From a virus (taxonomy: Duplodnaviria > Caudoviricetes): a stretch of DNA of 64,000 nt. The notes beneath the pieces were generated by a model. That model ran no database searches. It was given only the letters and a program-made list of their open reading frames with translations, and was not told the DNA's origin. Below, piece after piece: positions 824-62,369 of this stretch. Numbering within the stretch: the stretch's first letter is position 1; every line of letters starts with the position of its first letter. The stretch covers positions 63,037 through 127,036 of the IMG/VR virus record IMGVR_UViG_3300033121_000954; one strand, written 5' to 3'. Made by a program: the position numbers and the translations under genes.

Positions 824-829
824 ATATTT

Positions 830-1108
830 TTATATGTTTCGGTTTAAAGCATCAATACAATCTTGTAAATCAGTACATTGACGTATTCCAATGCCCATTT
901 CTAAATTGTACGGGTATTTAGAATCGTAATAAGCGCCACCATGTCTAATCTTAGTACCAATCACTTTAGCAACTATTTTACGACCATTCTTGATTATCGC
1001 GATACCATCTTCAAATTTTAAATCTGATACAGTATATTGCTCTTTCAAGATTTGTTCAACTAATGGCGTCAATAATTTCTTAATTCTATCTTTTGTGCTT
1101 GGTTTCAT
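830..1108 (-). CDS. Small protein with N-terminal ...LVEQILKE leader (putative capsid-internal protein)
   Basis: First ~23 aa nearly identical to 2965..3540; the rest is unrelated. Confidence 0.6.
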   Translation of the reverse strand: MKPSTKDRIKKLLTPLVEQILKEQYTVSDLKFEDGIAIIKNGRKIVAKVIGTKIRHGGAYYDSKYPYNLEMGIGIRQCTDLQDCIDALNRNI

Positions 1109-1152
1109 TGTATAAATTCCTCAGTTGGTTGGTTCGTTTTGGTATTTTTCCA

Positions 1153-2685
1153 TTAAATAAAATTAAATGCGGTTAAAATAGCAGCAAAAACGAACTCCAG
1201 TTTCAGTTTGATTAATGCTTCACGGGAAAAACTTTTCTGCAATGGGCGACTGAGTTTACCAACCGCCAACAATTCCTTTGCATCGTTATACAATCCAATC
1301 CCAGTGATATAGACCTTCGGATCACCGATAAAAGTTGGTTCTGCCAAGTCGCCTTCACTACCAGTTACAAAGGTTGGATTATTTGAGAAATTATATTCCT
1401 GATTTTTTACACGGACAAAATAATGAGTTGATTTAACTTTTTCCGCGCTACGTCCTTGAAATCCTAAACGATCTCCGCTCGTGTCGGTATAAAGTGCAGC
1501 ACCACTCATTGCAGTAAATAACTTCATTGCATTATTGCCCGGAATTTCACTACCAGTCACGGTCAAAAATGAACAACTCATATCAAGTTTATTTCCATCA
1601 AGCACAATAATACCCAATCTACGATATAATAATCCGTATTTATGAGGACTTGACGAGTTATATATTCCATCCTCAAGTGTTCCTGAAACAATATTATATA
1701 CTTCGCCAGCCGTTGTGATGGTCGCCGAATTTACACGGCTGTCATCTATTAACCGCGTTACTGCTTGGGTTGGATAAACTTTGACATTTGATCCAGTCCA
1801 TGCGTTTTGCACTCCACCGCCAGTTAACCATTGTGAACCACTCAATCGCTGAAGATTGATTTCAAGATTTCCTTCGTCCAAATATTCGCGCATCCTTGCA
1901 CGAGCGACGTTGATAGCGTAAATTGAATCAGTAGCAGTTCCATCAATTATGAATCGGTCTTGATCCGGTTCTAAACACAATTGCTTATATTGTCCGTAAA
2001 TTGCACGACTTGGAGTATCATTTATTTGACCGCCTTCATCGCCACTTCCAGAACCTTGTTTGTGGCCCCAAGCAACTGCAAATTGGCCAGTCGCTCCACA
2101 GTCACCACTTTGGCTTTGATAAACTTCGTAGTAATATCTTTGCTGAGTAGCAGTTTGAGCAGAACTTGTAAAAAATGTAATCAAATTACCAACATTTCCA
2201 CTCCACAACGCACGAGTGATTATTTCTTGTTGGTTTGGAACAATATCTCCACTTTCAAACCTCGTAAAAATACGGCCACTACCCAAATTACTTGGAGGTA
2301 ATGGTGCGGTTGGTTGGTATGGAACTTGGGGTGGACTAATTGGATTATTGAACGATGGTCCGCCAGTAAGCGGTCCACCTGTTTTTGGAACATCCGTGTT
2401 TGAATTATCCAAACTGTTGCCAAAATATTTCACATCATGGACTTTGTTATTTTGGTCCACGACGAAAAAATTTCCACCATTATCCTGAAATCCACTAACT
2501 GTTACACCCGGCATGACCGTTTTTGTAACTGGAGTTGTATTTGAGAGTGTGGATGGATTGTTGCTAACTGGGGTGACTTGATAGCCACTTTCAGTTAGTT
2601 TTCCTAACTGGCTGGAATCTAACTTTTGCGTCACGTCACCACCGGAGGATGGGATGTCCGTGGTACCTTTTTTAATAAATGCCAT
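1153..2685 (-). CDS. Baseplate/tail structural protein (C-terminal 'ITGIGLYND..ELLAVGKL' tail-collar-like domain)
   Basis: C-terminal motif recalled from myovirus baseplate/tail-fibre attachment proteins; S/G/T-rich; structural gene context. Confidence 0.6.
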   Translation of the reverse strand: MAFIKKGTTDIPSSGGDVTQKLDSSQLGKLTESGYQVTPVSNNPSTLSNTTPVTKTVMPGVTVSGFQDNGGNFFVVDQNNKVHDVKYFGNSLDNSNTDVPKTGGPLTGGPSFNNPISPPQVPYQPTAPLPPSNLGSGRIFTRFESGDIVPNQQEIITRALWSGNVGNLITFFTSSAQTATQQRYYYEVYQSQSGDCGATGQFAVAWGHKQGSGSGDEGGQINDTPSRAIYGQYKQLCLEPDQDRFIIDGTATDSIYAINVARARMREYLDEGNLEINLQRLSGSQWLTGGGVQNAWTGSNVKVYPTQAVTRLIDDSRVNSATITTAGEVYNIVSGTLEDGIYNSSSPHKYGLLYRRLGIIVLDGNKLDMSCSFLTVTGSEIPGNNAMKLFTAMSGAALYTDTSGDRLGFQGRSAEKVKSTHYFVRVKNQEYNFSNNPTFVTGSEGDLAEPTFIGDPKVYITGIGLYNDAKELLAVGKLSRPLQKSFSREALIKLKLEFVFAAILTAFNFI

Positions 2686-2692
2686 TTTGCTT

Positions 2693-2968
2693 TTATCTCT
2701 TTTTATTTATAACATTTTTTACGTTTCGGGCAATGGTGGAAATTTCCATTATCATGTCCTGTCGCATTAAATCTTCGCTCAGAAATCTAATTTCTCTGTT
2801 GACAATCTCGTCCAATTTATTTTGAATTTCCAATAGTTTATTGATTAAACCCTGTTGTGGATGTTCTGGTTCTTCTATTACCGATACGGCTTTAAAATGA
2901 TCTATGTTGTCGGATGATGGAACGTAATTGATTAGTTGTATGAATCGTTGTTTTCTGGATAGTTTCAT
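2693..2968 (-). CDS. Hypothetical protein
   Basis: ORF co-oriented and stop/start-coupled to its neighbour. Confidence 0.55.
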   Translation of the reverse strand: MKLSRKQRFIQLINYVPSSDNIDHFKAVSVIEEPEHPQQGLINKLLEIQNKLDEIVNREIRFLSEDLMRQDMIMEISTIARNVKNVINKKR

Positions 2969-3540
2969 TTATTTTTGTATTTATTTATAATGCCGACTTG
3001 AATTCTATTACCCGGCTTACCAGATAATGCAGAAGCAAAGTCTCCAGCAGACAATATTTTTTGACCAATGTCCATCATCAGTTGAAGTGTATCTAAATTG
3101 TTAGATTCGCAAAAATTTTTAACCGCCTCGGCACGAGTGCCAGTTAATTTGGCTATTGTGTCATATTTATGCTGAATACTACCAGAATTGAATTTAGTCT
3201 TCGCTTCGTCTAACGACGTAATGTCATGGGTAATATCCATCTTTTTTAACACCTTACCATTCTTATTCACCAATCTAAGTTCTATACTCTGTGCAGTTTT
3301 TAGATAATCCTTGACGGATTTAGATATTGAAATAATTTTGTTTTTCTGCAAATCAAAGGCGTTGTCAACACCTCTACCATATAGATTTCCGCGAATTACA
3401 TTCGTACCATCACTTCCCAACATTTGTTTTCCATCTACCCATGTTTCTATAAATCCAGTAACAGCAGATTCTTCTTTCAAAATTTGTTCAACAAGTGGCT
3501 TTAATAAGTTTTTGATTCTAATTTTTGTGCTTGGTTTCAT
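2965..3540 (-). CDS. Protein with N-terminal ...LVEQILKE leader (putative capsid-internal protein)
   Basis: Leader shared with 830..1108 at protein and DNA level. Confidence 0.6.
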   Translation of the reverse strand: MKPSTKIRIKNLLKPLVEQILKEESAVTGFIETWVDGKQMLGSDGTNVIRGNLYGRGVDNAFDLQKNKIISISKSVKDYLKTAQSIELRLVNKNGKVLKKMDITHDITSLDEAKTKFNSGSIQHKYDTIAKLTGTRAEAVKNFCESNNLDTLQLMMDIGQKILSAGDFASALSGKPGNRIQVGIINKYKNK

Positions 3541-3550
3541 CTATAATTCC

Positions 3551-4252
3551 TTATGGTAAACTAATTGGCGCATTACCAGTTAATGGTGCGTTTGGTGTAG
3601 TATTTAATGTAACTTTCTTGACTGTAATATTTACAACAACACGTCCACCAGTTTCATTACCAACGATAGTAAGTGTGGTTGAACGTGCAGCGAGTTGAAG
3701 CATATTGGCAGTAATCACGACTGATTTTCCAGTCAATACAACTGCACTTCCCAATTCATTTTCAGACATATTACCAGCAGTCACATTACCAGTTCCGGCA
3801 AATTGTTGACCCGGCGCAGCCTGTTCTACATACATAGTACATACGTCGGAATCTGCAAGTATGAACGAATATCCAAACGTTGTATTACCCTCTGTGTAAT
3901 TTACAGTTTGTGGAGTAATTGTGACGGATTGTCCTGGATTGAGAGTGAAAGTGGTTTGTGGTACTGAAACGACTGGAATTCTGATTGTTTTTCTTGGTAA
4001 TGTGACCAGTTTGTATTTCATCATTACTGTTTCGTCGGGGACGGCTTCAGTGATCGGCATTGATGTAATAACGATGTCCGCATATTGACTCCCGAGTGGA
4101 TGATCCGTATTAAATAAACTGTAATCTATTTCATCATCACTTAATGCGAAGTGGCTGATATTGAACTCATTACGTCCACGGGACAATAATTCTCTGCCCT
4201 TTTTCGTAAGAATACTATCACATATTATTGAATTATTTGAAATGTAACTCAT
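3551..4252 (-). CDS. Conserved phage structural protein (baseplate region)
   Basis: N-terminal 'D.ILTKKGRELL...FALSDDEIDY' motif typical of large-phage baseplate genes; beta-rich C-terminus. Confidence 0.6.
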   Translation of the reverse strand: MSYISNNSIICDSILTKKGRELLSRGRNEFNISHFALSDDEIDYSLFNTDHPLGSQYADIVITSMPITEAVPDETVMMKYKLVTLPRKTIRIPVVSVPQTTFTLNPGQSVTITPQTVNYTEGNTTFGYSFILADSDVCTMYVEQAAPGQQFAGTGNVTAGNMSENELGSAVVLTGKSVVITANMLQLAARSTTLTIVGNETGGRVVVNITVKKVTLNTTPNAPLTGNAPISLP

Positions 4253-4283
4253 TGTTTATCAAACCTTTATATTTTTAAAACTT

Positions 4284-5300
4284 TTAGTAAATTGCTTTAT
4301 CAAATGGTATTCTTAATATTTGACAATCTAAGCATTTTCTAATTTGAATTTCTCTGATTCTGTCATAGTCTTTAGTTCGTTTATTTCTATGGTGCGATTC
4401 GTCAAATTCAACCCAAATATTCAGGTTTGGGCAGTACGCATCGGCAAAATAAAATCTACTATATTCTTCATCATATAATCTAAATTCTCCTGACGGTGAT
4501 CTTGCGTGAACAAATTCAGTATTATATCTAATGTTTAAAATATCTACAATATATGGAATCGTATCTGGGTTAAATCTTGGTCTAAATGATGTAGATGCCC
4601 CTAATGCAAATACCACTCTGGCTTGTCCTCGTCTAATTTTCTCTGATATATCTTGACGTTCTTCATCATTCATATTTGCCCAGCGGGCTTTATGTGCAAT
4701 TGATAAATTTCTGCTTCTGGTTGCCATTCCTTCTGGAGTCATTTTTCTATTCTTGGCGGACTCAGATTGCTTCATTTTGGTTTCTTCACTAACCTCCCGT
4801 CCATTCATTTCTTTTATTCGGCATTCTTGGCAAGTTGGTGGTTCATCTTTTCTTATATTACTCATTGCTCGTTTGTATGAACCATAATTTGTATAATGAT
4901 ACACATTTCCACATTTATTTTTACATTCAATTTTCCAATCATCTGGATTATGACTCAGCCCAAGATTTCTACTCTTTTCCATTCCTCGTTCATGTGAAGA
5001 CGAACCAATTAGTTCATTTCTATTTATGTATTCTTTGCTGTTTTTGTCTATTGTATTCCAATAAATTTTTGCTGAGCATGATGGCCTGTAGCATATTCCG
5101 ACTGCATACGCGTAAATCTTCACTTTTTCGCCACAGCCGCATTCACACAATGGTATTTCATTATTTAGCAGTTCTTGAATCGTGTATTCTACACTACTTA
5201 AATTGTGGTCTTTTTTTATGTGATTTCCTAAATTTTTAGAATTTTTAAATTCTAAATCACATATTTTGCATTTAAAATCGGCTAATAAATATTTTGGCAT
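4284..5300 (-). CDS. Free-standing homing endonuclease-like protein (C2H2 finger, CxCGC, NUMOD3-like repeat, C-terminal Vsr/DUF559-like nuclease)
   Basis: CKIC..H..H; CECGCG; 'VSEETKMKQSES'; 'ADAY...WVEFDESHH...D..RE...ILRI'. Confidence 0.7.
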   Translation of the reverse strand: MPKYLLADFKCKICDLEFKNSKNLGNHIKKDHNLSSVEYTIQELLNNEIPLCECGCGEKVKIYAYAVGICYRPSCSAKIYWNTIDKNSKEYINRNELIGSSSHERGMEKSRNLGLSHNPDDWKIECKNKCGNVYHYTNYGSYKRAMSNIRKDEPPTCQECRIKEMNGREVSEETKMKQSESAKNRKMTPEGMATRSRNLSIAHKARWANMNDEERQDISEKIRRGQARVVFALGASTSFRPRFNPDTIPYIVDILNIRYNTEFVHARSPSGEFRLYDEEYSRFYFADAYCPNLNIWVEFDESHHRNKRTKDYDRIREIQIRKCLDCQILRIPFDKAIY

Positions 5301-5430
5301 TATTATTCTAATTTGGTTTTTGTCTCCTACAATTTAACAAATTCTTATTGAAATTCATTAGTATTCAAAATATCCAACAATTCTTCAAGTTCATAATCGT
5401 CCAATTTTTCATTAGAAGTTTGTTTCATTG

Positions 5431-5910
5431 TCATTTTTTTACAGTTGCCCAATCATGTAAAGAATTTAAAAATTCAATATAATCGGAATGAGTATAATTG
5501 TCGCCAATTTCAGAAACCCACCCATCTTGTCGGGTTCCAGTATTTGCTGATGCGTTACTTAAAACTACCTCTCCGTAATTATCCTCTACATCTATTTTTA
5601 ATTTTACATTTTTATCCATTACAATTTCATATTCACGCGGATAATCAGAATTACTATTCAATGTTGCTGGAAAATTTATATCATCTACATCAATCCACGC
5701 TGATATTATAAATAATTCATTCCCAGTCTTGTTCAACGATGTCATCCAATTGTCCATTGAATTAGCGACCGATGGTTCGGCAGTGAAATGAACTCCTAAA
5801 TTATTCATATCCAAATCAGAAACGTCATTAAGTTTTATTCCACGATACACTTTTATTTTACTGAATGGAAATTTCATTATCTCATTTAAAAGTAATTTAA
5901 GTTTTATCAT
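5431..5910 (-). CDS. Putative ADP-ribosyltransferase (R-S-E-like) with KLKLLLNE leader
   Basis: 'VYRGI' strand 1, 'GVHFT' strand 2, 'EYE' (ExE) catalytic motif. Confidence 0.55.
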   Translation of the reverse strand: MIKLKLLLNEIMKFPFSKIKVYRGIKLNDVSDLDMNNLGVHFTAEPSVANSMDNWMTSLNKTGNELFIISAWIDVDDINFPATLNSNSDYPREYEIVMDKNVKLKIDVEDNYGEVVLSNASANTGTRQDGWVSEIGDNYTHSDYIEFLNSLHDWATVKK

Positions 5911-5919
5911 AATAAATTT

Positions 5920-5930
5920 ACATATAAATA
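5920..5930 (-). promoter_or_regulatory. Putative late promoter motif TATTTATATGT
   Basis: The same 11-mer (ACATATAAATA on +) occurs at 5920, 54751, 56433 and 63591; related copies at 34671 and 37783. All sit at or near gene boundaries. Confidence 0.45.
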
Positions 5931-5951
5931 TCTATCCGGCATAATTTTAAT

Positions 5952-8900
5952 TTATTCCACCCGGATTCCACCACCCAACGGCGAATCGTTCACACTTAAT
6001 TTATTTGGATCACTTTCCCATATCGTTACAACAGGTCCACCGTCGGCGGTTTGGTTTGAATTCACATTAAATGCCGGTCCTTCCAGTTTACTGCCCATAA
6101 ATCTACTGCTGCATTCATAATTTTGATAACTTCCACATTCAAGCGACTTTGAATAATACATTCCATAACTTTTTGAAACTGCCGTGTACCATTGCTTTTC
6201 ATATTTTGTCGCGAATTGTCCACTTGCACTATAATGAAAAATTACTTTTTTGTAACAGCAATTTAAACGAGTACCATCAATATAACTTTGTGTAGGACTT
6301 TGTGAGCCAGAATATCGGGTTGGTATCGTGTCAACATCCATAGTTAATTGCTTACTGGACGTGTTAAAATGACTTAGGCTGCTACCAGTTGCAAAAACAG
6401 TGTAAGGGACGGAACCTGTAATATAATTGTACCTTGACGCAATTTTGGGGCTGTACGAGGCACTGGACTCAATTTGTTGTACTTCGGCATCGGTGGTTGG
6501 TTGAATACCCGCCACATCCATATCATATTGAGGATTTTCAATTTGTGGTCTCCGAAATGCTTGAACTTTTGATCGTTCAAGGACGGTTGGTTCAATTAAA
6601 ATACCAGCAACTAAATCGGCACGGCCGGGTACAAGTTGTTTTATCTGTTCAAAAAATGTATAATCATAAGCAGATAATATCTCAATCAAATCGTTGATAT
6701 TATTTGCTTGTTGATATTTTTTAAAGTAATGATATGCAAACTGTTTTAGTTCACCATACTCGCTTTCATATACATATTCCGGGTCTCCGATGTAATCATC
6801 CAATTCCGCAAATCCAGTATGATTGTAAATATCCCGATCAACATGTTCAGTGGGCGAAAATACAACCGCAAGCCTGTTTGAATCAAACGATGCCTTATCA
6901 AATGCCCCAACAGTACTACGATTTGTTGGAGATAAATCGCGTAATAATGCAGTATCTTCCAATCGTATTTTATCACTTCGCAAAACATTGCCACCAAGTG
7001 TCGGAGGGGTGACATAATATGTCTCAACACTGGATTTGTATTGTTCTGATTGTGAACCAGTAAAACCGACAAACGATGCGGTTGTGTCTAAACTTGCGCG
7101 GCGATTTGGCTGACTACTACTAACTAATTGATATACACTATGATCCCATCTTTGCTGATCTAATCCAAGCGGAAAATATCTGAAAAGTGTATTGAAGGAA
7201 CTGGTTGGATCATTTCCATGATATGCTGCTGGATTTAAAACGTGTTGGTCAAACGATGATGTATTGATTACTTCATACCATTCCTTGTAGCCCTGCATTT
7301 GTCCGACAAACCGATTTGCCGAAATTGGACTTGGTATTGTTGAACTTCCAGTCGTACCGCCCAAAATTACATAATGCGTTCCGCCAGCATCGTATGACGA
7401 AAAATTACCCCACGAATTTCGCATTCGTGAGCCGGAGAATGCAATACTTCCAGTGTGTGTTATTCTACCATATAAAGAATCTGATTGACGTTTAACATTT
7501 ATATAAATCCATTCTAATGTATTATTTGTTAATGTTATTGGGCTTAAAGTTTTAATTTGCACCGTCCAAAAATCATTATCAAAAAGTGGAAGTGGTTCAG
7601 ATTGTTTTTTAACCTGAATATCGGTACCAAACGCATTAACAGTATGACCACTGTATCTTAAATACCCATACGCATAACTTCCACTATATTTTGGGGTGGA
7701 TTGAGATGCTGTAATGTGTACTAATTCAAGTAAATTTACCCCACTTGTTACATTGTTCTCAATTCCCCACAATGACATTGAGACAGAACTGGAATAATTT
7801 GTCCTAAACCGAAATTCTATTGTGTCTGGAACGCGAGTTGAACCTGAATAATATGATCCAGAACTTGCTGGAATACGTCGTCTTGGTAATTTAACATACT
7901 GACTACCACTGAAATTTAAAGCATATTGGAACCTGTCTTCTATCAAGGATGGTAACCCATTGGACGGACTTGTACCGCCATATTCCCTGATTGAAAGTAA
8001 TGTTTGTGGTATTCCATAAATTGACATCAATGCTTTTAATGACCTCGGAGTACCTTTAGTTTTAAGCAAAAATGGTAAATTATTTACAATCCGTTTCCAA
8101 ATCTGGTGCGTCTGCATTTCCTCGCGTTGAGAAAATAGCGTACCTGTTTGGGCAAATGAACCAGTCCTGTCCGTACCCAGTTTATATTTTGCAAGATTGG
8201 ATAACTGCCGCGTATTTTGCAATTGCCAACCATACGATTTTGCCAGCGGATATAATAATTCAGACGGAGTTCCACGTTCTGGATGTTCATCCCGTTCGTG
8301 AATTTGCGTATGTGCCTTGACATACGAATAAATCGTATCAAAATGCTGACCCAACATGTCCACAAACAATACCAAATTACTATTGCCAGGTTCCATGTAA
8401 ATATGTTCTGGAATGCTCCAATACAACCTATTTACATTGTCTTTATCATATTCGCTTGCAGAATATAATAACGTATTATACCAGTTCTGAACAATTGAAC
8501 TGGAAATGGTATAGTTTGCCCACTTCCCACTGACCAACCGTTTCGGGTGTGGAGTGAGTGAGCCCGTGAAATCATGTGTAAAAATTGAACTGGTCGGATG
8601 ATAATACAACCATCGTTCCCACGGATCAAAATTTGTCGTAATCTGATCCATCCTTCGCGTATTCAAGTCAATTGAACTTGAAATGAATGGAGTATTACTT
8701 GCCGTTGAACTTAGCAGAATTGCGACCGAACTACTGTACTCTTCAAGTTTTGATACTTTGTAGTGGTAGTTTTTTGCTCGCTCAACTGCACTTGAATAAA
8801 AAATAAAGTTATCAAAACTTGTATAGTCAATGTTTAAATTGATAGTTCCACTACCACTCAGGGCTTTATCAATTATTTTTTGACTGGTAAGTGCATCACT

Positions 8901-9653: not shown

Positions 9654-9664
9654 ATCATATTCCT

Positions 9665-9898
9665 CTATTTATTCAAATACCAATGCGAAAGTTCTAAATC
9701 TTTCCATTGTTTATAATCATAATTACTCAATACAATCAGTGTAGTATTAGTGTTTTCCACATTCACTACTTGAGCAAATCGCATTAAATCAGCAATGGCC
9801 TTTTTATATTCAGCAAATGCGTATGCTTCAATCAATTGTTCAGTTGCATCTGGAAATTCAGCATGCCGTTGAATAATATTTTTCGGCGTAATATTCAT
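9665..9898 (-). CDS. Hypothetical protein
   Basis: Co-oriented ORF filling the gap. Confidence 0.5.
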   Translation of the reverse strand: MNITPKNIIQRHAEFPDATEQLIEAYAFAEYKKAIADLMRFAQVVNVENTNTTLIVLSNYDYKQWKDLELSHWYLNK

Positions 9899-9900
9899 GT

Positions 9901-10161
9901 TCAGTTATAAGTTTTGCCGTCAGGTGATTGTCCGCCTTTTAGCCAACTTTTAACATCAGCATACCAAGGCATAGTTCTAAACTCATTTATATGCTTGTTC
10001 GCACCAAATTTTCCAACCCATTTAAGATTATTAACCATTTCAAAGTGTGTTGAATCGTCACCCTTTGTTAGATACCAAGTGCCATTCTCGTCGGTAATAT
10101 TGATAGTCATGGACGTATCATTTTCCATAAGAATTTCTTTAATTATTTGTTTTAAGTTCAT
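9901..10161 (-). CDS. Small protein with LKQIIKEILME leader
   Basis: Leader resembles the other cargo genes. Confidence 0.55.
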   Translation of the reverse strand: MNLKQIIKEILMENDTSMTINITDENGTWYLTKGDDSTHFEMVNNLKWVGKFGANKHINEFRTMPWYADVKSWLKGGQSPDGKTYN

Positions 10162-10172
10162 TTTTTCTCCTA

Positions 10173-10214
10173 CAAAGGTAATGGTTAAAATTTAATTGTC
10201 AAGATCATTAACAA
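10173..10214 (-). promoter_or_regulatory. Bacteroidetes sigma-A-type promoter
   Basis: TACCTTTG (-7) with TTGA ~19 nt upstream and a TGTTAA element. Confidence 0.6.
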
Positions 10215-10218
10215 TTTG

Positions 10219-10698
10219 TTATGATATTATTTTTATCTGATTTTTATTAAAAACGACATAATTGTTTGCAACGATATTACCAGCAAAAATATCTCCATAC
10301 GAATCTTTAATGTCGTGCATTATAATTCCATCCAAATCATCGTCAACAAATCCGTTATACCAATCATAGTAACCCAATTCCTCACGCATTTCATCGTCAA
10401 TACCGTATTTTTTTATATCATCCGATATACCCTTAATCAACTTTGCAAATTGAGACGGGACATAGTGCTTTCCCATGAAAGTAATTGTTGATCCTCCATC
10501 AAAATCTACTTTAAGTGGATTGTCTAAATCTAACTTGGCCTTTATAATTATATTGCCATACGACTTAGCGACTTTAATATCGTCAGAAAAAAATATAGGC
10601 TCGGAATCATTAAACGAACTAAATTTGGTATTAGTACCATGATAAACTATCAAACTGTCTTGTATCTCGTTTAATAGTGGGGCTAATTTCATATTCAT
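10219..10698 (-). CDS. ADP-ribosyltransferase-fold protein (ART-PolyVal-like) with KLAPLLNE leader
   Basis: 'IVYHGT...F..F...IFFSDD..VAKSYG', 'DGII', 'YVVF.K.QIK'. Confidence 0.6.
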   Translation of the reverse strand: MNMKLAPLLNEIQDSLIVYHGTNTKFSSFNDSEPIFFSDDIKVAKSYGNIIIKAKLDLDNPLKVDFDGGSTITFMGKHYVPSQFAKLIKGISDDIKKYGIDDEMREELGYYDWYNGFVDDDLDGIIMHDIKDSYGDIFAGNIVANNYVVFNKNQIKIIS

Positions 10699-10712
10699 AT
10701 ATAATTCCTATA

Positions 10713-11561
10713 TTATATTTTCTTACTTGCTTCGGCTTGAGCCTTGGCTGCGTCTGCCTGTGCTTTAGCCGCTTCTGCTGCTGCTTGCGCTGCTTGCGCG
10801 TTTGCGATTGCGGCTTGACTTGCAGCCTTATCCGCTTCGCTTTGCGCTTTGGCGGCTTCTGCTTGCGCTTTGGCCTTTTCTTCGGCGGCTTTTACTGCTG
10901 CAATTTGAGCACTGGCTTCTGCCTTGGCACTTTCCGCCAACGCTGCACCAGTTTTAACATTTCCTTCCATCGTTTTTAACGCTTCTGAGTTGGTCACGTC
11001 TTTGAAGTCTTCTGTCCAGTTTGCTTCTTTATCAGGTATCTCTTCACTTGCAAGTTCAATCTGGTTACATTCTTTGTCTGACACTACACGAACGGAAAGC
11101 AATGTCTGATTTCGCTCAGCAAGCATAACTTCTAATGTTTTGTAATTTGGTATTTTCTTTTTCTTTCCGTCCAAATAAATATAATAAGTGTAATTTTCCT
11201 TATTTGTTGGGGTACTGTTTTCAGAAACACACCTGAAAATTTGACCTTCTGCCAATGTAAATTTGTCTGGTGGAATTATAGATGGAGGTACAAAATAAGA
11301 AAATCCAGTATCAATATATTGTGCAAAATTGTCATCAAATATTTGGGTTTTCCTCGGAACAAAATTCAAATATAATTTTTGCTTTTCCGTTGGAATTATG
11401 TATGTTCCAGCACCATTCCGGGTGGACAACGTATAGTTTTGTTTATCTATATTATCTTGTGTAATAAATTCGTAAGTTTCACCTTCTTTTGGAATGGTAA
11501 TTAATTTCGCATTGCTGGATAGCAAATCGTTATACACAATATTTGAAAGTGTTATTTCCAT
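10713..11561 (-). CDS. Virion-region protein with Ala/Lys/Gln-rich coiled-coil C-terminus
   Basis: Repeated AKAQAEA units. Confidence 0.65.
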   Translation of the reverse strand: MEITLSNIVYNDLLSSNAKLITIPKEGETYEFITQDNIDKQNYTLSTRNGAGTYIIPTEKQKLYLNFVPRKTQIFDDNFAQYIDTGFSYFVPPSIIPPDKFTLAEGQIFRCVSENSTPTNKENYTYYIYLDGKKKKIPNYKTLEVMLAERNQTLLSVRVVSDKECNQIELASEEIPDKEANWTEDFKDVTNSEALKTMEGNVKTGAALAESAKAEASAQIAAVKAAEEKAKAQAEAAKAQSEADKAASQAAIANAQAAQAAAEAAKAQADAAKAQAEASKKI

Positions 11562-11562
11562 T

Positions 11563-11925
11563 TTATTTAATCAAGTGTTCCACTTTTTTCCACACAGCGA
11601 TTGCGGCTTTTTGATTTAATCCAATCCTGATGACTTTTATCGGTGTGGTCGGTTGTGTAATTTTGTAAGCAAGTTGACGGTGATGTCCATCAACTATATA
11701 ATTATCAATTGAAATAACAATTGGCGGCATTGGTTTACCTTGCCGGATTTCCTTTGCAATGCGGATGACTTTTTCTTTATCAACTTGATGCTGAGAGTGG
11801 TACAATTCAGATGGAAGTACATTAACAACCTTCACCCCAATGTTGTTTCGTTTTAGAACATTTATCGCATCAGTTAGTTCATTACCAGCAATTTGTGGCA
11901 TGACGTATCGGTTTACTTTGGTCAT
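11563..11925 (-). CDS. ParB/Sulfiredoxin N-terminal domain protein
   Basis: 'PPIVIS.DNYIVDGHHR' motif. Confidence 0.75.
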   Translation of the reverse strand: MTKVNRYVMPQIAGNELTDAINVLKRNNIGVKVVNVLPSELYHSQHQVDKEKVIRIAKEIRQGKPMPPIVISIDNYIVDGHHRQLAYKITQPTTPIKVIRIGLNQKAAIAVWKKVEHLIK

Positions 11926-12296
11926 TTTGGCTCTCTATACATCAATTCTGATATTGTAAAATCTTTATTTCTTCCCTTATTTAATACAAATCCAAACCGT
12001 TTATAAAATTCAATGAGTCTGGATTGGCTGGTTGTGCCATGTCGTTTGTCAATCAGTCCGGGTGTCAATACGATTCTCTTTTTTAATCTATCGGCGTATT
12101 CACACAATTCATTCAACACTTTAGTCCCAACCCCATTTCCTTGATTTTCCTTGCCGACAATTATCGTATCTAATTTTATATAATCTTTATGTTCATATAC
12201 ATGAAACGCCTTTAGACCATATTTTGTCTCTATCGCATTTGCCCAAGATTCTATACTTTCGGATAAGATTTCTTTTATTAAATTTCGTATTGTCAT
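11922..12296 (-). CDS. GNAT acetyltransferase with IRNLIKEILSE leader
   Basis: 'QGNGVGT' acetyl-CoA motif A and 'LIEFYKRFGF'; start reassigned to the ATG at 12296. Confidence 0.75.
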   Translation of the reverse strand: MTIRNLIKEILSESIESWANAIETKYGLKAFHVYEHKDYIKLDTIIVGKENQGNGVGTKVLNELCEYADRLKKRIVLTPGLIDKRHGTTSQSRLIEFYKRFGFVLNKGRNKDFTISELMYREPK

Positions 12297-12297
12297 A

Positions 12298-13428
12298 TCA
12301 ATTCCTGCGGATTCTAAAAATATGATTGTCATCAGTCACTCTGACAGTATCCCCACCATCAAACTCGGATTTTATTACAATTTTATAATATCGTTCTGGC
12401 AAAAATGACCCACAATCAAGTTTTATATAATTACCCGAACTATCACAATTTACTTTCGTTCCAACAGTGTTGAAGGGGACAATTACTTCGTCCGTCGCAA
12501 CATCCTGAATTTGAAAATATGAACCTGTTGGAAGTCGTTTTGAATTCAAATAATTAGAACTTGTTGCATACGTTTGAATTGGAAAACGCTCCCTGATATG
12601 TAACCGAACTTTTGGTTTTTCTGCATTTGTGTAAGTTTCTCGTAAATTCTTTGTATCCAACACAAAATCATCACTTCCAATCTCATTAAATGAACCAGTC
12701 CCGCTTAGATTTGTATCATTCCAATACACCTCAAGACGAGGCAAAAATATAGTATGAGATTCGTTTGAAAAGAATTGCAAAGATTGAAATACTGTTGTAT
12801 CAAATTCGTTTGCATCAGAAAGTTTTACAACAAACCCCTGATTTACAATTGATCCCGCCAGCCAAGCATTTACCACATTGGTTACGTCCATTCGCATATC
12901 TGGAGATTCATTTTCAAATGTTTGACTTGCAGAATAATTTGTAAACCAATTGCCACCGCCATACACAGTATCGTAACTTCCAGTAGAATTTGCATTGTAA
13001 CTGGATGTTGTCCACTGCGTACCAGTTACTTTATCGCTACGATATTTCCAAGAAACTCCGTTGGATATTTCGGGCAAATTGCTGTAATGCCCTGTGCCAT
13101 TTGTCCAACTGCCAGAAATTGGGTAAGCCCATAATGTATAACGGATTGGTAAATCTGTGGCAGTCGTTGCCTTCAATGTCAGGAAATATTGTGCAGTATT
13201 GCTATCAATCTTACCCGATACAATTGAACTTGAAATATCACTTAAATCAAATTTGATAAATATACGAGAATTTAATGTATTGGAATAATACACTGTATCA
13301 TCACCCACAATGGATGGATTACCAACTGTCGCTTTAGTTATTTCCAATATTTCATCCGCGCTCGCATTCTTATTTGGAAATTGAGAGTACAAGACGGTAT
13401 CGGCGGTTGGATAAATTATTTTATACAT
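12298..13428 (-). CDS. Virion protein with DNRLRE/CBM96-like domain
   Basis: 'ADT...SRIFIKFDLS...W...MDVT..V.AW...NQGF...F.S.E..PRLEV' pattern. Confidence 0.6.
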   Translation of the reverse strand: MYKIIYPTADTVLYSQFPNKNASADEILEITKATVGNPSIVGDDTVYYSNTLNSRIFIKFDLSDISSSIVSGKIDSNTAQYFLTLKATTATDLPIRYTLWAYPISGSWTNGTGHYSNLPEISNGVSWKYRSDKVTGTQWTTSSYNANSTGSYDTVYGGGNWFTNYSASQTFENESPDMRMDVTNVVNAWLAGSIVNQGFVVKLSDANEFDTTVFQSLQFFSNESHTIFLPRLEVYWNDTNLSGTGSFNEIGSDDFVLDTKNLRETYTNAEKPKVRLHIRERFPIQTYATSSNYLNSKRLPTGSYFQIQDVATDEVIVPFNTVGTKVNCDSSGNYIKLDCGSFLPERYYKIVIKSEFDGGDTVRVTDDNHIFRIRRN

Positions 13429-13438
13429 TTATAATTCC

Positions 13439-15304
13439 TTAAATTTCAACACATCTCACTCGTATATCCCGTTTTAAAAACTGAACGGTGAAAATACTTG
13501 GATCAATTGGAGGGTAAATTACACGGTCGCGAGTCGCAACATCAATATCATATTGATTGCCACTATATCCTTGATTCACATCAATCAAATTAGTAAATTT
13601 TATATTACGAATTGACTGAACACCATCCACCAAATCAAGTTTTGAAACTATATTTGAAATTATAATCGGAGCATTGATATTCATGTTCATCGGATCAAAT
13701 ATTTCAATCAATTTTTCCAACACCCGCAAAGATACCTCATTACTGTTTTCAGATGGACGAGCGATGATTTCACAATCCACTCCAATGTTTATTATGAACG
13801 GGTCTTTTATCTGGATTGCGTCGGTCATCAGTCGGTATTGTGACAAATATTTCTTCAAATTTTGCTTTATTGCTTCATTACACGTTACCAATTGCCCCGA
13901 TCCATTCAGAGACAATACATACAAATTAAGTGAATAAATGTTTGGTATTCTGTCTGACCTCCAACCACCCAATTGACTATCCTGTTCAATGTATGCTTTA
14001 GCAACTGCTCCATATTTTGCGGGCATTGTAAAGCATCGTATAATATAGTCCTCTTTTGTAACTGCTCTATTCTGTGTTGCAAAATTTGCAATTGCTTCTT
14101 CACGAATTATATTAAGAGGCTTTCTATTCTGTCCACCAAACGCTCCGTTTGGATTATTTATGGATAGACTGTCTTTAATGGTTTGCAAAACTGTCGGGTC
14201 TGTGGAATCAACCGGATCAACAATATCACTTTCAAGAATTCGGGTGATTGTATTTGCATTCACATTGTCCGAAATTCCGCTTGTAGTCGCATATCTAACA
14301 GTGAGTAAGGTATCTGATGGTGCAGTACCATAAGTCTTGGTGTAGAGGAAATTAAGGGGGTCTAATGACACGTCCGAAATCCTTTCAAAATAGTTCAATC
14401 CAAGACCGACATTGAAAGGATTGGGTACAATTTCCTCATCTGCTTCGGCACTCATACCTGCACCGAACTGAATTTCAAATGTGTTGTCCGATCTCAATCT
14501 CGTTACAAACCTATGTTCAGTTTGTTTGTATGTCAATAAATATGGAACTGAACTTCTATGCTGACTAAGGACAGGATCGTTGTATGGTAAATTGCGGTAT
14601 GGTATTGCTACCAAATCTTGTGCTAAATAAGGAACCTCGTACCAAATATTTGTATCCGAATCTACAATATCAATAATTTCAGTCACGTTAGTTTCCGGAA
14701 TTACAATCTTATCATATATCTTTGGTTCACCAAATTGAAAAGTAGCAGTCTTCATCTGCCCACTGACTGCTTTCACTCGTTTTTTCAGCAAATAATATTC
14801 AATTGCGCCATCGTTTGTGACGGAATATGTTGTGATAGTAGTTGGGTCTAAACTTGAACTGAATCTAAAATCAACAGAGTCTTTAGTATAAAAGAAAACT
14901 GCATCGGTATCCGTTGTGGAGACGCGCATATTATCTTTGATAAATAACGCATATCTAAAATCGGGCTTAGTGTTAACTCCTTCTCCTATACTCGGAATTA
15001 ACTGAAAAACATCCAAATCCACAGATGCGGGTACGACTGTTTTTGCAGAATAGCCCATTGCACGAGAGAGATTGTAAATATTTTTACGTTCCTCCGCCAG
15101 TGTTAATAAACTTTCCTGAAGGTTGATGTCACTTGAAAAATTGAGGACATCCGTTACATACGCAATACTTTCCAGCGTAGCAATTAGTGGATTTGCTTCA
15201 TTGAAATCTGAATTTGCGTTTGGAAAATACTGCTTGAAATAGTTAATCAGTGCAGTTCTATTCTCAGCAAAATCTTTATAAAGAAATTTTACATTGCGTT
15301 TCAT
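13439..15304 (-). CDS. Baseplate wedge subunit (T4 gp6 / baseplate J-like)
   Basis: 'KDF...LINY.K.YFP..SDFNE', 'IQFG.G', 'QNRAVTKEDY' motifs. Confidence 0.85.
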   Translation of the reverse strand: MKRNVKFLYKDFAENRTALINYFKQYFPNANSDFNEANPLIATLESIAYVTDVLNFSSDINLQESLLTLAEERKNIYNLSRAMGYSAKTVVPASVDLDVFQLIPSIGEGVNTKPDFRYALFIKDNMRVSTTDTDAVFFYTKDSVDFRFSSSLDPTTITTYSVTNDGAIEYYLLKKRVKAVSGQMKTATFQFGEPKIYDKIVIPETNVTEIIDIVDSDTNIWYEVPYLAQDLVAIPYRNLPYNDPVLSQHRSSVPYLLTYKQTEHRFVTRLRSDNTFEIQFGAGMSAEADEEIVPNPFNVGLGLNYFERISDVSLDPLNFLYTKTYGTAPSDTLLTVRYATTSGISDNVNANTITRILESDIVDPVDSTDPTVLQTIKDSLSINNPNGAFGGQNRKPLNIIREEAIANFATQNRAVTKEDYIIRCFTMPAKYGAVAKAYIEQDSQLGGWRSDRIPNIYSLNLYVLSLNGSGQLVTCNEAIKQNLKKYLSQYRLMTDAIQIKDPFIINIGVDCEIIARPSENSNEVSLRVLEKLIEIFDPMNMNINAPIIISNIVSKLDLVDGVQSIRNIKFTNLIDVNQGYSGNQYDIDVATRDRVIYPPIDPSIFTVQFLKRDIRVRCVEI

Positions 15305-15313
15305 TTATCGTTC

Positions 15314-15787
15314 CTATTGCACGATTGTTGAAATCGCGCCCCCTTCTTGAAATATCGTTATTGTCTTATTTGCATTGCTATTCTCAACGCTAAACGTAAT
15401 TATGATTTGTATTGCATTTTCCGGGTCTCCATTAACAGATACATCGGATGTTGGGCGACCTTTAACTACAATACTATGGTTTTTAATATATGGAAGCCAA
15501 TACGCCGACTGTCGTTCTATTTCAAATTCTATTTCAGTTCTAATTGATTCGGTATTTTGTTCAAATAAATAGTCTTGTAGTCCAACTCCAAAATTTATCT
15601 GCATGTACCGCTCACCTTTTCGGGTCAATAACAGATTTATATAATTTGTTACTGCCTGATCTTCAGTAGTCCTACTCATATTAAAAAACCCACCAACCGT
15701 TTTTGTTTGTAAACCGTTGGTAGGGAGTTTAATTCCTATGAAGCCATAATCTTCTCGCTCGTCTTCTGGATAATATTTAATTGGCAT
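15314..15787 (-). CDS. Baseplate wedge subunit gp25-like
   Basis: 'NLLLTRKGERYMQINFGVGL...LFE...YWLPY' GPW/gp25 motif. Confidence 0.85.
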   Translation of the reverse strand: MPIKYYPEDEREDYGFIGIKLPTNGLQTKTVGGFFNMSRTTEDQAVTNYINLLLTRKGERYMQINFGVGLQDYLFEQNTESIRTEIEFEIERQSAYWLPYIKNHSIVVKGRPTSDVSVNGDPENAIQIIITFSVENSNANKTITIFQEGGAISTIVQ

Positions 15788-15962
15788 TATGTGTCCTTAA
15801 TCATTTTTTTGATAGTATCAATATACCAAATACAAAATCCAGCAACTCCAAAATAAAATACATCAGTTATTTCAAAATAAATGAGTGATTTTCCTATTTG
15901 GAGTGCCATGAATCCAGTAAGTACCGCAGTTATAAACCATGAATAAAATATTGATAGTTTAC

Positions 15963-16970
15963 TCATTTTCTATCTCGTAATTCTTTTGTTTTATCAATAA
16001 CGTATCTCTTGATGGATTCTCCATCAGATAATTCTTTTACTTTTTTTAGTATATCTTCAATGGTTTGTGCAGTTTCAATGGTCTCGGGAAGTGCTAAATA
16101 TGGCATCCCAGGAACACCTCGGTGATTTTGGTATAAATTTACAGCCCAATAAGGAGTTTTCATAAATGTTCCTCGCGTAAACACCAACGAAATGTTGTCC
16201 ATTAATTTTATTCGGGCATCTTCCCCATTCCAACTAAGTCCTAACTTGTTGGCTAAATAAGTGGTCATATCCTGCTTTTTGAAGACCTTGCTCACCGAAG
16301 TTGTTTTGAATTTTTCCAATTTAACTTTTGGAAAGGCGATTTCTGGCTTTGTAAAAATATCGTGGTTTTGGGTTCTGGTATAATTGGTTTGGGACAATTT
16401 GAGTTTTTTACTGTTGAAGAACCCATACGCAACCACGACAAGCGGGTAACTTATATTACCACTCCCGCTTCCAAGTGAAGTTGTTTGCGTTACATTGCTC
16501 AGCAAACATGAGAACTCAATTAAAAATAATATCCCACGATCACCATTTGAAAATTCTGCCGCCAGCGAAATATACTCCGCATAGTCCGACGCAGATTTTG
16601 GAGATGTGCGGACGATTCTGGATGTAAATGGCTCGTTGTAAACAGATTTAAAATACGATTCAAACGCACTTAAATTAAGTTTGGATTTTAGTTGCTCCAA
16701 TACTTCAAATGCGAGTTTTATATTTTTCTCGGCAGTCTGTGCTCTGTTAGCAGATGATGTCGTTGCCAATGTTTGTTTTTCTAAAAATTCCTTTGCCGCA
16801 ATTACGTCTCGCATCGCTTCATCACTTCCTCCACGATCTGGATGAGACTTGATTGACGCTTTGCGAAATGCCGTTTTTATGTTCTCTGGAGTCAGTTCAT
16901 TCTTAGATAATCCGAGCACTGCCAACGCACGATCAAACGTAATTTCCAATAAAAGTTGTTTTAATTTCAT
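15963..16970 (-). CDS. DnaJ (J-domain) protein with KLKQLLLE leader
   Basis: 'A..VLGL...IKTAFRK.S.K.HPDRGG' with an intact HPD. Confidence 0.8.
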   Translation of the reverse strand: MKLKQLLLEITFDRALAVLGLSKNELTPENIKTAFRKASIKSHPDRGGSDEAMRDVIAAKEFLEKQTLATTSSANRAQTAEKNIKLAFEVLEQLKSKLNLSAFESYFKSVYNEPFTSRIVRTSPKSASDYAEYISLAAEFSNGDRGILFLIEFSCLLSNVTQTTSLGSGSGNISYPLVVVAYGFFNSKKLKLSQTNYTRTQNHDIFTKPEIAFPKVKLEKFKTTSVSKVFKKQDMTTYLANKLGLSWNGEDARIKLMDNISLVFTRGTFMKTPYWAVNLYQNHRGVPGMPYLALPETIETAQTIEDILKKVKELSDGESIKRYVIDKTKELRDRK

Positions 16971-16972
16971 AT

Positions 16973-17485
16973 TTAACCTACCTTATTTAACCAACTCATA
17001 TCTTCGTCATCACCAGATGAATGCCCCATGTCTGAATCATCAGCAATCATAGCAAAGATTTTTGATTTTACTGCCGAATTTGGTTGAGATTTGAACATTC
17101 CACTATAATCGCGATTCATCGCTTCCATCACACCTTTAACGCCCGGATTTGAAATGTTGGGACGGCTGCCGTCCAACCCAGAAGTTACAACAATAGGAGT
17201 TTGTTCATCTATATATCCAAGTCGCGAAGCAATATCTTGTTGTTCCGATATTGGCTCACATTCAGACAGAATTGAGTTTAACATCGGGTCGTTTGAATAT
17301 TTAATTCCCCGTTTGGGCTGTTCAAAAACCAAATTTTTGCGAAAGTTCTTTTGAACTTCCACTAAATTGTTTGGTTTTGCTTGTGGTGTTTTCATTTCGT
17401 TCAATAACTGAGCCTTCAACTGTTTGAACTCTTCCCTAACAGCCTTTTGAATGATCTCAGTTAACATTTTTTGGAGTTTTGTCAT
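16973..17485 (-). CDS. Hypothetical virion-region protein
   Basis: Likely start MTKLQKMLTEIIQKAVREE; 'DPMLNSILSE' and 'AMNRDYS' motifs. Confidence 0.6.
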   Translation of the reverse strand: MTKLQKMLTEIIQKAVREEFKQLKAQLLNEMKTPQAKPNNLVEVQKNFRKNLVFEQPKRGIKYSNDPMLNSILSECEPISEQQDIASRLGYIDEQTPIVVTSGLDGSRPNISNPGVKGVMEAMNRDYSGMFKSQPNSAVKSKIFAMIADDSDMGHSSGDDEDMSWLNKVG

Positions 17486-17623
17486 TCTACGTTCTCTCCT
17501 ATAAATTTTGCGATACCAACATGCAATTTTCTTGCCATTGAGTGAATTCATATTGGTCAGCGACATGCTGCCAGTCTGTATCTTTGGAACACCTTTCCAA
17601 GTATTCTTGATATATAATATTCA

Positions 17624-17851
17624 TCATATTTTAATTCGTTGTAAGAATAGTTCTTTCGTTTCTTCGTATTCAACCTCATTCCAGATTTCAAACATGGACC
17701 AATAATTACCAGACCTGAGAAGGTTGACCGTATTTAATTCAGTACGAACAAACTTTTTGATTTGTTCTAAATCAATTTGATCGTAAAATATATCAAACAT
17801 CTGTTTGAACATGTGCGACCCTTCAAAAAATGAAATCCGAATACGTTTCAT
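17624..17851 (-). CDS. Hypothetical protein
   Basis: Preceded by a sigma-A promoter (TACCTTTG at 17872-17879). Confidence 0.55.
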   Translation of the reverse strand: MKRIRISFFEGSHMFKQMFDIFYDQIDLEQIKKFVRTELNTVNLLRSGNYWSMFEIWNEVEYEETKELFLQRIKI

Positions 17852-17871
17852 GTGTTGTAAATTTTATACAA

Positions 17872-17912
17872 CAAAGGTAATCACATTTTAAATACCGTAC
17901 AAATCATTAACA
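17872..17912 (-). promoter_or_regulatory. Bacteroidetes sigma-A-type promoter
   Basis: TTTG-N20-TACCTTTG plus upstream TGTTAA. Confidence 0.65.
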
Positions 17913-17917
17913 CATCG

Positions 17918-18652
17918 TTAAATACTAAAAGTTCTAACTACTTCAATTGCGGTTTTTGGAATCGTATTTAGTGTAAAGTATCCATGCCCTTTACTATTGG
18001 GATCCTTATAAATTTGAAAATAATTTGGGATTAATCGTGTACTTATTTTCAAAATGGTAAATTGTCCATCTCTACTTTTTTTCCATGCGTTTGGATTGTT
18101 TCTTATCATCAACTCCACTTCATCATCACTTCTGCCCAAATAAACTCTTGGTGGGTGATTGGATGTTACAGAGTGCGATTTAGGTATCAACCCCAAAGTC
18201 ATAATTTTCAGGGCACGTTCTCGTGAAGTAATGTGATATAAAAATTGCGGTATTTTCTCAACTCTAATATCATACTTGGCTTCAAATTTTATCATTACAG
18301 TATCAAATTCTGGATATCGCTCATTGAAATAAACTTCCTCGTATTTACCTTTGTCCTTAATCTGGTTGTTTACCATGTAATAAACGTAAGATGGAATCCA
18401 CCCCAAATTATTTGCAAGTGCAATTATTTCATCGGGTGTACGTCTATTATCCGAATCAATCAAAACGTGAAATACATTTTTATCTTTATATTGGTCACAT
18501 TCAACTTTATGATTTTTTAAAATTGATATAGTTTTGTCAAGAGGCCATGTCTTCAACAAGCCTTCGTTTAACAAATTTTCCTCTATAAATACATCATATT
18601 CGTCGTCATCGTCTATCATATTGATAGTATCAATTATACTGCGAATTTTCAT
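17918..18652 (-). CDS. ART-fold (Tpt1/KptA-like) domain protein with acidic N-terminal leader ending LLNE
   Basis: 'LYHITS...I...GLIPKS...PRVYL'; start reassigned to MKIRSII. Confidence 0.55.
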   Translation of the reverse strand: MKIRSIIDTINMIDDDDEYDVFIEENLLNEGLLKTWPLDKTISILKNHKVECDQYKDKNVFHVLIDSDNRRTPDEIIALANNLGWIPSYVYYMVNNQIKDKGKYEEVYFNERYPEFDTVMIKFEAKYDIRVEKIPQFLYHITSRERALKIMTLGLIPKSHSVTSNHPPRVYLGRSDDEVELMIRNNPNAWKKSRDGQFTILKISTRLIPNYFQIYKDPNSKGHGYFTLNTIPKTAIEVVRTFSI

Positions 18653-18653
18653 A

Positions 18654-50832: not shown

Positions 50833-51126
50833 TTACAACCATTCCATTTCCAATTCGCGGTCATCATAATCAAACCCCATGTAGGCATTGAGTAGTTCTT
50901 TGCGCGAAATTACATTCGGATTCCAATCCGTCCATGCCAGAACGGTGGCTACTACATCCTCGTTTGACAAGTCACATGGCTGGCCTTGTAGCCAAACCAT
51001 TGATTGACCGCCGCCAAGTTCTGGACGTGTATTTTCTGGAAATGAACGCCCGCAAAATGAGGACGACATCCATTGCTCGTTTGCCAGATATTCGTGGCAT
51101 TCGTTGACAAATTCTGAAATTTTCAT
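50833..51126 (-). CDS. Hypothetical early protein
   Basis: Follows the promoter at 51151. Confidence 0.55.
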   Translation of the reverse strand: MKISEFVNECHEYLANEQWMSSSFCGRSFPENTRPELGGGQSMVWLQGQPCDLSNEDVVATVLAWTDWNPNVISRKELLNAYMGFDYDDRELEMEWL

Positions 51127-62150: not shown

Positions 62151-62369
62151 ATCAACACTGTTTCAACATTTCCATTAACCGTGGAAATGCTGGATGATCC
62201 GAATTTCGTATTCCGGCATTCCTACGGAGCCATTGTACGTCGTGAATCCTCCATTCCGGAATATCCAGTTCGTGGTATCGGATATATTCGGTAATGGTTC
62301 TACCAAATTTCCAACACCCACTACATAATCCAGTATGCAGTTTTACAGGTGTGTCGCAAAATTCACATT

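Follow-up and report, generated by a model that had tools for sequence, protein, structure and literature searches.

Leader-bearing genes in the window and the rest of the genome

The window analyzed here comprises 64,000 nucleotides (nt), bases 63037-127036 of a single 127,036-bp phage contig (IMG/VR record IMGVR_UViG_3300033121_000954), on which the minus strand carries nearly all genes. Between window positions 830 and 18652 lie nine genes whose products begin with a leader ending in (L/I/V)-x-Glu, joined to cargo bodies that differ from gene to gene (Table 1). All nine N-termini quoted in a first-pass annotation of this DNA are present in the sequence of that segment; the numbers it used (830, 2965, 5431, and so on), which we retain as gene names, are the low-coordinate stop ends of minus-strand open reading frames (ORFs), and the leaders lie at the high ends. 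A megablast search with the first 20 kb of the window against known phages returned no match. Capsid protein identity is 56% with 'Microcystis phage Mel-JY01', 51% with Flavobacterium phage vB_FspM_immuto, and 35% with Rhodothermus phage RM378, values that place the phage with the 'Far-T4' phages (PMC4360716); it is a distant T4 relative of this type, probably with a host among the Bacteroidota. The paper describing the Far-T4 group mentions neither a protease nor internal proteins (PMC4360716).

Table 1. Leader genes and neighboring features. Coordinates are those of the window unless marked 'genome'; a slash marks the predicted cut after Glu, and lengths are in amino acids (aa).
Feature	Coordinates	Strand	Gene and cargo
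Long leader, 23 aa, MKPSTK...PLVEQILKE/Q	1040..1108	-	Gene 830-1108, 92 aa; cargo without known family
Long leader, 23 aa, ...PLVEQILKE/E	3472..3540	-	Gene 2965-3540, 191 aa; cargo basic, pI 9.4
Short leader MIKLKLLLNE/I	5881..5910	-	Gene 5431-5910, 159 aa; cargo a possible minimal R-S-E ADP-ribosyltransferase (ART) (YRG ... EYE)
Leader MNLKQIIKEILME/N	10123..10161	-	Gene 9901-10161, 86 aa; cargo without assigned family
Short leader MKLAPLLNE/I	10666..10692	-	Gene 10219-10692, start at second in-frame Met; cargo an ART-PolyVal ADP-ribosyltransferase domain
Leader MTIRNLIKEILSE/S	12258..12296	-	Gene 11922-12296, internal-Met start; cargo a GNAT acetyltransferase
Short leader MKLKQLLLE/I	16944..16970	-	Gene 15963-16970, 335 aa; cargo a J-domain (HPD motif) plus a C-terminal domain without assignment
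Leader MTKLQKMLTE/I	17456..17485	-	Gene 16973-17485, internal-Met start; cargo acidic, without assigned family
Acidic N-terminal region, 30 aa, ending L-L-N-E/GLL	18563..18652	-	Gene 17918-18652; cargo with a Tpt1/KptA-like ART-superfamily fold
ParB-like gene, 120 aa, no leader (context)	11563..11925	-	Overlaps the stop codon of the GNAT gene; polyvalent-protein-type domain
Two baseplate wedge genes, 13439-15304 and 15314-15787	13439..15787	-	phrog_219, 2.9e-16, and phrog_261, 5.1e-12; tail/baseplate module marker
Further leader genes	genome 14592, 15424, 19596, 40677, 43350, 43580, 48881, 57477, 61969		
Long-leader copy, frameshifted in an A10 run	genome 58714-58991		MKLTENQ..., paralogue of 14592; leader DNA 91% identical to that of 14592
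Complete in-frame internal leader copy with its own AGGA motif	genome 18307-18735		Follows 63 upstream codons

Four of the leaders need an internal Met as their start, at codon 3 in 10219, codon 13 in 11922, codon 28 in 16973, and codon 12 in 17918. An AGGA-type ribosome-binding motif stands ~8-12 nt upstream of the internal Met in the first three (AGGAGA in 16973), and no motif of this type precedes that of 17918. Most leader genes (window 830-18700 and genome 14-62 kb) are preceded at 8-12 nt by Shine-Dalgarno-like motifs of the AGGA/AGGAG type, which is unusual given the Bacteroidota-infecting relatives of this phage. The leader genes are interspersed among genes of a tail/baseplate module, and the earlier description of them as lying between baseplate genes is borne out in part, by the two neighbors, and only these, with PHROGs matches to baseplate wedge proteins.

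Genome-wide, approximately 20 late genes start with such a leader, nine of them in the window segment above and about ten upstream of the window. Small genes lying between those for the portal, protease, and scaffold carry this type of motif as well, and the tagged 270-aa protein at genome position 57477 contains an HExxH motif. The early half of the genome (83-127 kb) is without leader genes except for one weak regular-expression match at window 50833-51126 (MKISEFVNE/C, 97 aa), which is probably due to chance. The frameshift in the copy at 58714 could be a sequencing error, the mark of a pseudogene, or a slippage site. Leader-like segments also occur within longer ORFs, with L-K-K-I-I-V-E-V-L-N-E/V at residue 228 of a 408-aa protein (genome 60746-61972) and L-K-K-Y-L-I-E/T inside a 203-aa protein that adjoins the protease (genome 41033-41644); these two segments and the internal copy at genome 18307-18735 may be internal cleavage sites or reflect fused genes.

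Boundaries, frequency, and conservation of the leader

The genome contains seven copies of the long leader, each with two candidate cleavage sites (L-V-E and L-K-E), and those of genes 830 and 2965 are identical at 20 of 23 residues. The similarity is confined to the leader at the DNA level as well: three gene pairs show 84-91% identity over the leader DNA, against a background level of 48-65% in the 60 nt that precede it and the 140 nt that follow. For 830-1108 and 2965-3540 the leader identity is 84%, again with flanks at background. The cargo bodies were described in the first-pass annotation as unrelated, and we find no significant mutual similarity among them (best blastp E value, 0.001). 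The combination of leader-only DNA identity and unrelated bodies shows the leader to be a sharply bounded and separable module on unrelated genes, and the seven long copies cannot be chance. Across the seed leaders, Glu occupies P1 in 17 of 17, and P3 is L, I, V, or M in 16 of 17.

An alternative is that compositional or translational bias generates look-alike N-termini, given highly expressed late genes in an AT-rich genome and Lys, Leu, Ile, Asn, and Glu codons following the ATG. The window G+C content is 32-41%, MK- starts are common, and the bare (L/I)-x-E motif is found at the N-termini of 23/87 late and 12/74 early genes, without enrichment (p = 0.13). The first-pass annotation had named an equal frequency of the motif at the starts of early or metabolic genes as a refutation of its interpretation. 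Its own, stricter motif, (L/I)-L-x-E, begins 8/87 late genes but only 1/74 early genes; from internal positions 1.3% per gene would be expected, which late genes exceed ~7-fold (binomial p = 1.5e-5). A start-anchored pattern matches 5/170 start Mets versus 1/529 internal Mets in this genome, and 9/923 versus 1/5127 in its relatives, where it is thus ~50 times more common at starts. When all N-terminal 26-mers were clustered without supervision, 17 leader genes fell into a single cluster with 20 members; the clusters from shuffled N-termini had 4 to 8 members, and single-linkage clustering of a control window (residues 31-56) produced one of 13, a result that favors a compositional contribution. 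Bias is nonetheless hard to reconcile with near-identical long leaders that end sharply at the DNA level between unrelated proteins, with the enrichment of the strict and start-anchored patterns, or with a Glu that is invariant across 61 distant homologues of one cargo (see below). The compositional explanation is largely refuted, and we regard it as very improbable.

A profile built from the N-termini had been recommended as a check, and a 12-column hidden Markov model (HMM) made from eight leaders of the window was scanned against all six frames. It recovered the long-leader paralogues, and the short leaders were lost in noise; applied to the head regions of relatives, the same HMM gave only a few hits. 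A word-based homologue search with residues 1-40 of the product of gene 2965 returned only the query.

The first-pass annotation had recognized three ART folds, a GNAT, and a J-domain among the cargos. Pfam supports an ART-PolyVal domain, the GNAT, and the J-domain, and structural comparison supports a Tpt1-like ART fold; the remaining ART, in 5431, stays below the Pfam cut-off. Gene 10219-10692 matches ART-PolyVal (PF18760, Tox-ART-HYD2-like) at 1.1e-10, with 42.9 bits against a cut-off of 31.2 bits, and its first strand (L-I-V-Y-H-G-T, including the His) directly follows the leader. For 5431-5910 the match to Pfam ADPrib_exo_Tox has an E value of 0.005 and 16.7 bits, under the 23.4-bit cut-off; in a search for R, S-T-S, and E-x-E motifs, YRG and EYE are present and S-T-S was not clearly found. 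The GNAT (11922-12296) matches Pfam Acetyltransf_7/1, and the J-domain of 15963-16970 matches Pfam DnaJ (PF00226) with 29.1 bits against a 27.8-bit cut-off. Gene 2965 has no Pfam match and no ESM Atlas hit, and the other leader proteins are small and without known family in Pfam or PHROGs, resembling T4 internal proteins in these respects. Three domains match PHROG profiles of 740 to 3925 positions, which represent domains of giant polyvalent proteins: the ART-PolyVal (phrog_21376, 1664 positions), the GNAT (phrog_10691 at 6.5e-33, 3925 positions), and the neighboring ParB-like protein at 11563-11925 (phrog_2859 at 2.2e-18, 740 positions, as well as ParB-like PHROGs). Domain matches in Pfam and PHROGs start shortly after the leader Glu, within a few residues.

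Conservation of the leader could be followed in three independent cargo families. For the J-domain protein, 20 homologues down to 37% identity were aligned; M1, K2, L7, E9, and I10 are at least 90% conserved, and H43-P44-D45 is invariant in 21 sequences. Residues 1-8 of its AlphaFold2 model have a predicted local distance difference test score (pLDDT) below 50, and helix I begins at residue 12, so that the leader is conserved yet lies outside the fold, which fits a linear targeting and cleavage motif. The C-terminal domain of this protein (~220 aa) is modeled with pLDDT mostly 80-94 and gave only weak PUR-alpha-like structure hits; a Foldseek search with the model matched the J-domain alone, with no clear match for the C-terminal domain among solved structures. 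The GNAT family has 84 homologues, the closest ~45 of which begin with MK[LI]xx[LI][LIF]xE followed by N/S-I-E/D-S-W; some distant homologues are leaderless, with the domain at the C terminus of longer proteins.

The third family, that of gene 17918, is very large, with 1076 representative relatives (clusters at E <= 0.001). The 61 members that were aligned have N-terminal regions of 7 to more than 40 aa, always ending in (L/I/Y)-x-E/GLI, with E30 invariant and G31-L32-I33 at least 90% conserved. Foldseek matches the protein to KptA/Tpt1 (E value, 9e-6; probability, 1.0), a phmmer search against the PDB returned only noise, and phrog_5470 is matched by 5 of the 61 members. H140, H166, and D217 are invariant in the family, with R169 and Y171 conserved at 90% or more; going by the alignment, this set does not look like the Arg-His-Arg-Arg tetrad of Tpt1. 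Among deposited phage records, relatives were found only in three uncultured megaphage records (LR756501-LR756503, 642-735 kb).

Head module and the role of the leader

Upstream of the window is a T4-type head module, with Pfam matches to the Gp23 capsid protein (4.6e-75), Portal_T4 (1.4e-68), and Peptidase_S77. The last of these is the prohead protease that the first-pass annotation had asked for, a gp21-type enzyme encoded on the minus strand at genome 41626-43353 (PF03420, 8.3e-20; phrog_207, 5.6e-32). Its gene is interrupted directly after the ELDHP motif by a ~370-aa LAGLIDADG intein, which begins with Cys and ends ...S-G-N, followed by Ser; ELDHP and SSRGxGS are intact and invariant in an alignment with five intein-free relatives, and all invariant residues are kept. 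The protease itself begins MKQLLIE/, compared with MNEPQLLIE/ in T4 gp21, and the N-termini of T4 gp24, gp67, gp68, and gp22 have the same kind of motif. The capsid protein also has a candidate site, Q-L-V-T-E/A at residues 56-61, which blastp pairs with F-L-T-E/A of T4 gp23, where cleavage in T4 frees a propeptide of 65 residues (PMC9026906); the Pfam Gp23 match begins at residue 71. This site reads QL[VLM]xE/[AQGN] in 30 of 31 relatives and YIVKE/G in the remaining one. A complex prediction for the scaffold protein with the 830 protein scored 0.00 and speaks neither for nor against an interaction. A split large terminase was suspected and ruled out, the gene being intact.

We consider it likely that the leaders are T4-type capsid-targeting propeptides cut by the gp21-type prohead protease. 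The notion of a modular address tag, put forward in the first-pass annotation, is supported by the S77 protease, the capsid site, leader conservation within cargo families, and leader-only DNA identity; core binding, cleavage, virion presence, and injection are steps that we infer. Tagged proteins would be made late in infection and docked by the amphipathic leader into the scaffolding core of the prohead, where the gp21-type serine protease would cut after the Glu of (L/I/V)-x-E and free the mature protein inside the head. At the next infection the mature proteins would exit together with the DNA and act ahead of any phage gene expression. The cargo would include the ART-PolyVal protein, the Tpt1/KptA-like ART-fold protein, the possible R-S-E ART, the GNAT, the J-domain protein, the HExxH protein, and about a dozen small proteins. 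Some of the tagged small proteins encoded next to the portal and protease probably belong to the prohead core, as T4 gp67 and gp68 do, and are not effectors.

Cleavage and targeting need not go together, and the leader could be a protease-removable propeptide only, a zymogen-like latch that would hold potentially self-toxic enzymes (the ARTs and the GNAT) inactive up to head maturation, with head targeting provided by other features or absent for some proteins. The best-conserved positions are indeed those of the cleavage motif (the P1 Glu and the P3/P4 hydrophobics), in the ART proteins the leader runs directly up to the first catalytic strand, and in the T4 capsid-targeting sequence (CTS) processing and targeting map to different residues (PMC9026906). 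Gp21-type proteases act only within the prohead, however, so their substrates must reach it; residues upstream of the motif are conserved too (K2 and L3, for instance, in both the J-domain and the GNAT family); and a leader of 9 aa, modeled as unstructured, would make an unlikely inhibitor. We therefore think a purely propeptide function unlikely.

A different explanation is suggested by the map, on which the nine leader genes are interspersed with baseplate wedge genes: the leaders, being amphipathic helices, could dock their proteins to the tail or baseplate (as riders in the tail lumen or on the baseplate) or act as generic oligomerization helices, with no relation to the prohead protease. 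Such an origin would not explain why the same type of motif is found at the capsid propeptide site, at the N terminus of the protease, and on small genes of the portal/protease/scaffold region, and a cleavage site better accounts for the invariant Glu at which N-terminal regions of differing length end. Nor is the gene neighborhood decisive, because Alt-family ARTs are encoded beside baseplate genes and T4 Alt, whose gene adjoins baseplate genes, is nonetheless packaged in the head (PMC5512222); this also accounts for leader genes among the wedge genes if they are head cargo. We judge a docking or oligomerization role to be distinctly improbable.

Several observations weigh against the leaders being capsid-targeting propeptides. 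The leader genes in the window sit in the tail/baseplate module and not in the head module. The bare motif is of low information content and shows no enrichment by itself, so that any given short leader could be a coincidence. In gene 17918 the leader is atypical: it is acidic, runs to 30 aa, and has no AGGA motif upstream. The protease can be active only if its intein splices, which we assume, and cleavage, packaging, and injection rest on inference. Finally, four related IMG/VR genomes and phage immuto gave no significant match to a long-leader profile. Related genomes, that of immuto included, have analogous but different leaders; leaders thus evolve fast between genomes and are alike within one.

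If the leaders do direct packaging, they provide a simple sequence rule for listing the proteins injected by uncultured Far-T4 phages, which are otherwise invisible among unassigned genes. Candidates for takeover or counter-defense in the first minute of infection would include three ART-fold enzymes, an acetyltransferase, and a J-domain protein, the last a possible partner of host DnaK, and a T4-style tag able to package any protein is suggested for engineering phages of Bacteroidota.

One further similarity between gene products concerns proteins other than the leader genes. A zinc-finger-like N terminus (K-C-K-I-C ... N-H-I-K-K) is common to the proteins at window 4284-5300 and genome 35241-37196, with which a third protein, at window 62152-62382, clusters more loosely; these are possibly paralogous DNA-binding proteins.

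Comparison with known packaging systems

The T4 CTS, with the sequence MKTYQEFIAE, and the head-packaged ART Alt are textbook knowledge, and an Asp-10 mutant of the CTS still sends a reporter into heads. The arrangement proposed here is similar to the T4 CTS/gp21 system (IPI, IPII, IPIII, Alt, gp24, gp67, and gp68) in several respects: a Peptidase_S77 protease is present, the predicted cut follows the Glu of (L/I)-x-E, and leaders of ~7-25 aa are attached to unrelated, fast-evolving proteins. The capsid propeptide site is homologous, the protease bears the motif at its own N terminus, and an ART, with its gene beside baseplate genes, is among the cargo. It differs in that the leaders have the forms MK[LI]Kx[LI]LxE and K-R-I-K-x-L-L-x-P-L-V-E-Q-I-L-K-E and not that of the T4 CTS, in that there are ~20 tagged genes compared with ~8-10 in T4, and in that these are scattered over the tail and head modules, unlike the internal-protein locus of T4. 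The cargo is also richer in enzymes (HYD-type ART, Tpt1-like, GNAT, J-domain, and HExxH). In T4, cleavage occurs after L/I-X-E and a 10-aa CTS suffices to package foreign proteins, and the CTS has already been proposed as the means by which T4-like phages load diverse proteins (PMC9026906, PMC3012670). With the principle thus established in T4, the gain here is not a new mechanism, but breadth, a cargo catalogue for a group of uncultured phages, and a link to the polyvalent repertoire.

In the giant phages phiKZ (gp175), 201phi2-1, and SPN3US (gp245), ~19 or more head and ejection proteins are processed at a short motif, after its Glu, by a diverged gp21-like protease, and the propeptides often have redundant sites (PMC9026906). 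The long leaders, with their two candidate sites, are similar in this regard. The giant-phage motif is S/A-x-E, unlike the T4-type hydrophobic P3 seen here, and these phages have an inner body, virion RNA polymerases, and jumbo genomes, whereas the capsid protein of our phage is clearly Gp23-like.

Polyvalent proteins, described by Iyer, Burroughs, Anand, de Souza, and Aravind (2017), are likewise predicted to be packaged in the head and injected (PMC5512222). The leader genes and their neighbors have much of the same repertoire (ART-PolyVal, GNAT, ParB-like, and HExxH), a late, virion-associated context, and predicted delivery with the DNA, and the leader could be a second delivery route for the domains that Aravind and colleagues described. 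More tentatively, and a little short of what we would call likely, we suggest that Far-T4 phages of Bacteroidota took the polyvalent repertoire apart into ~20 individually addressed capsid cargos by means of a recombining leader cassette, uniform within each genome, which would let new enzymes plug into head delivery, with the Tpt1-like family constituting widespread injected effectors. Polyvalent proteins combine 2 to 15 disparate effector domains in one polypeptide, whereas the genes here are stand-alone and encode 120-160 aa, with a separate leader on each small gene and no MuF or portal fusion.

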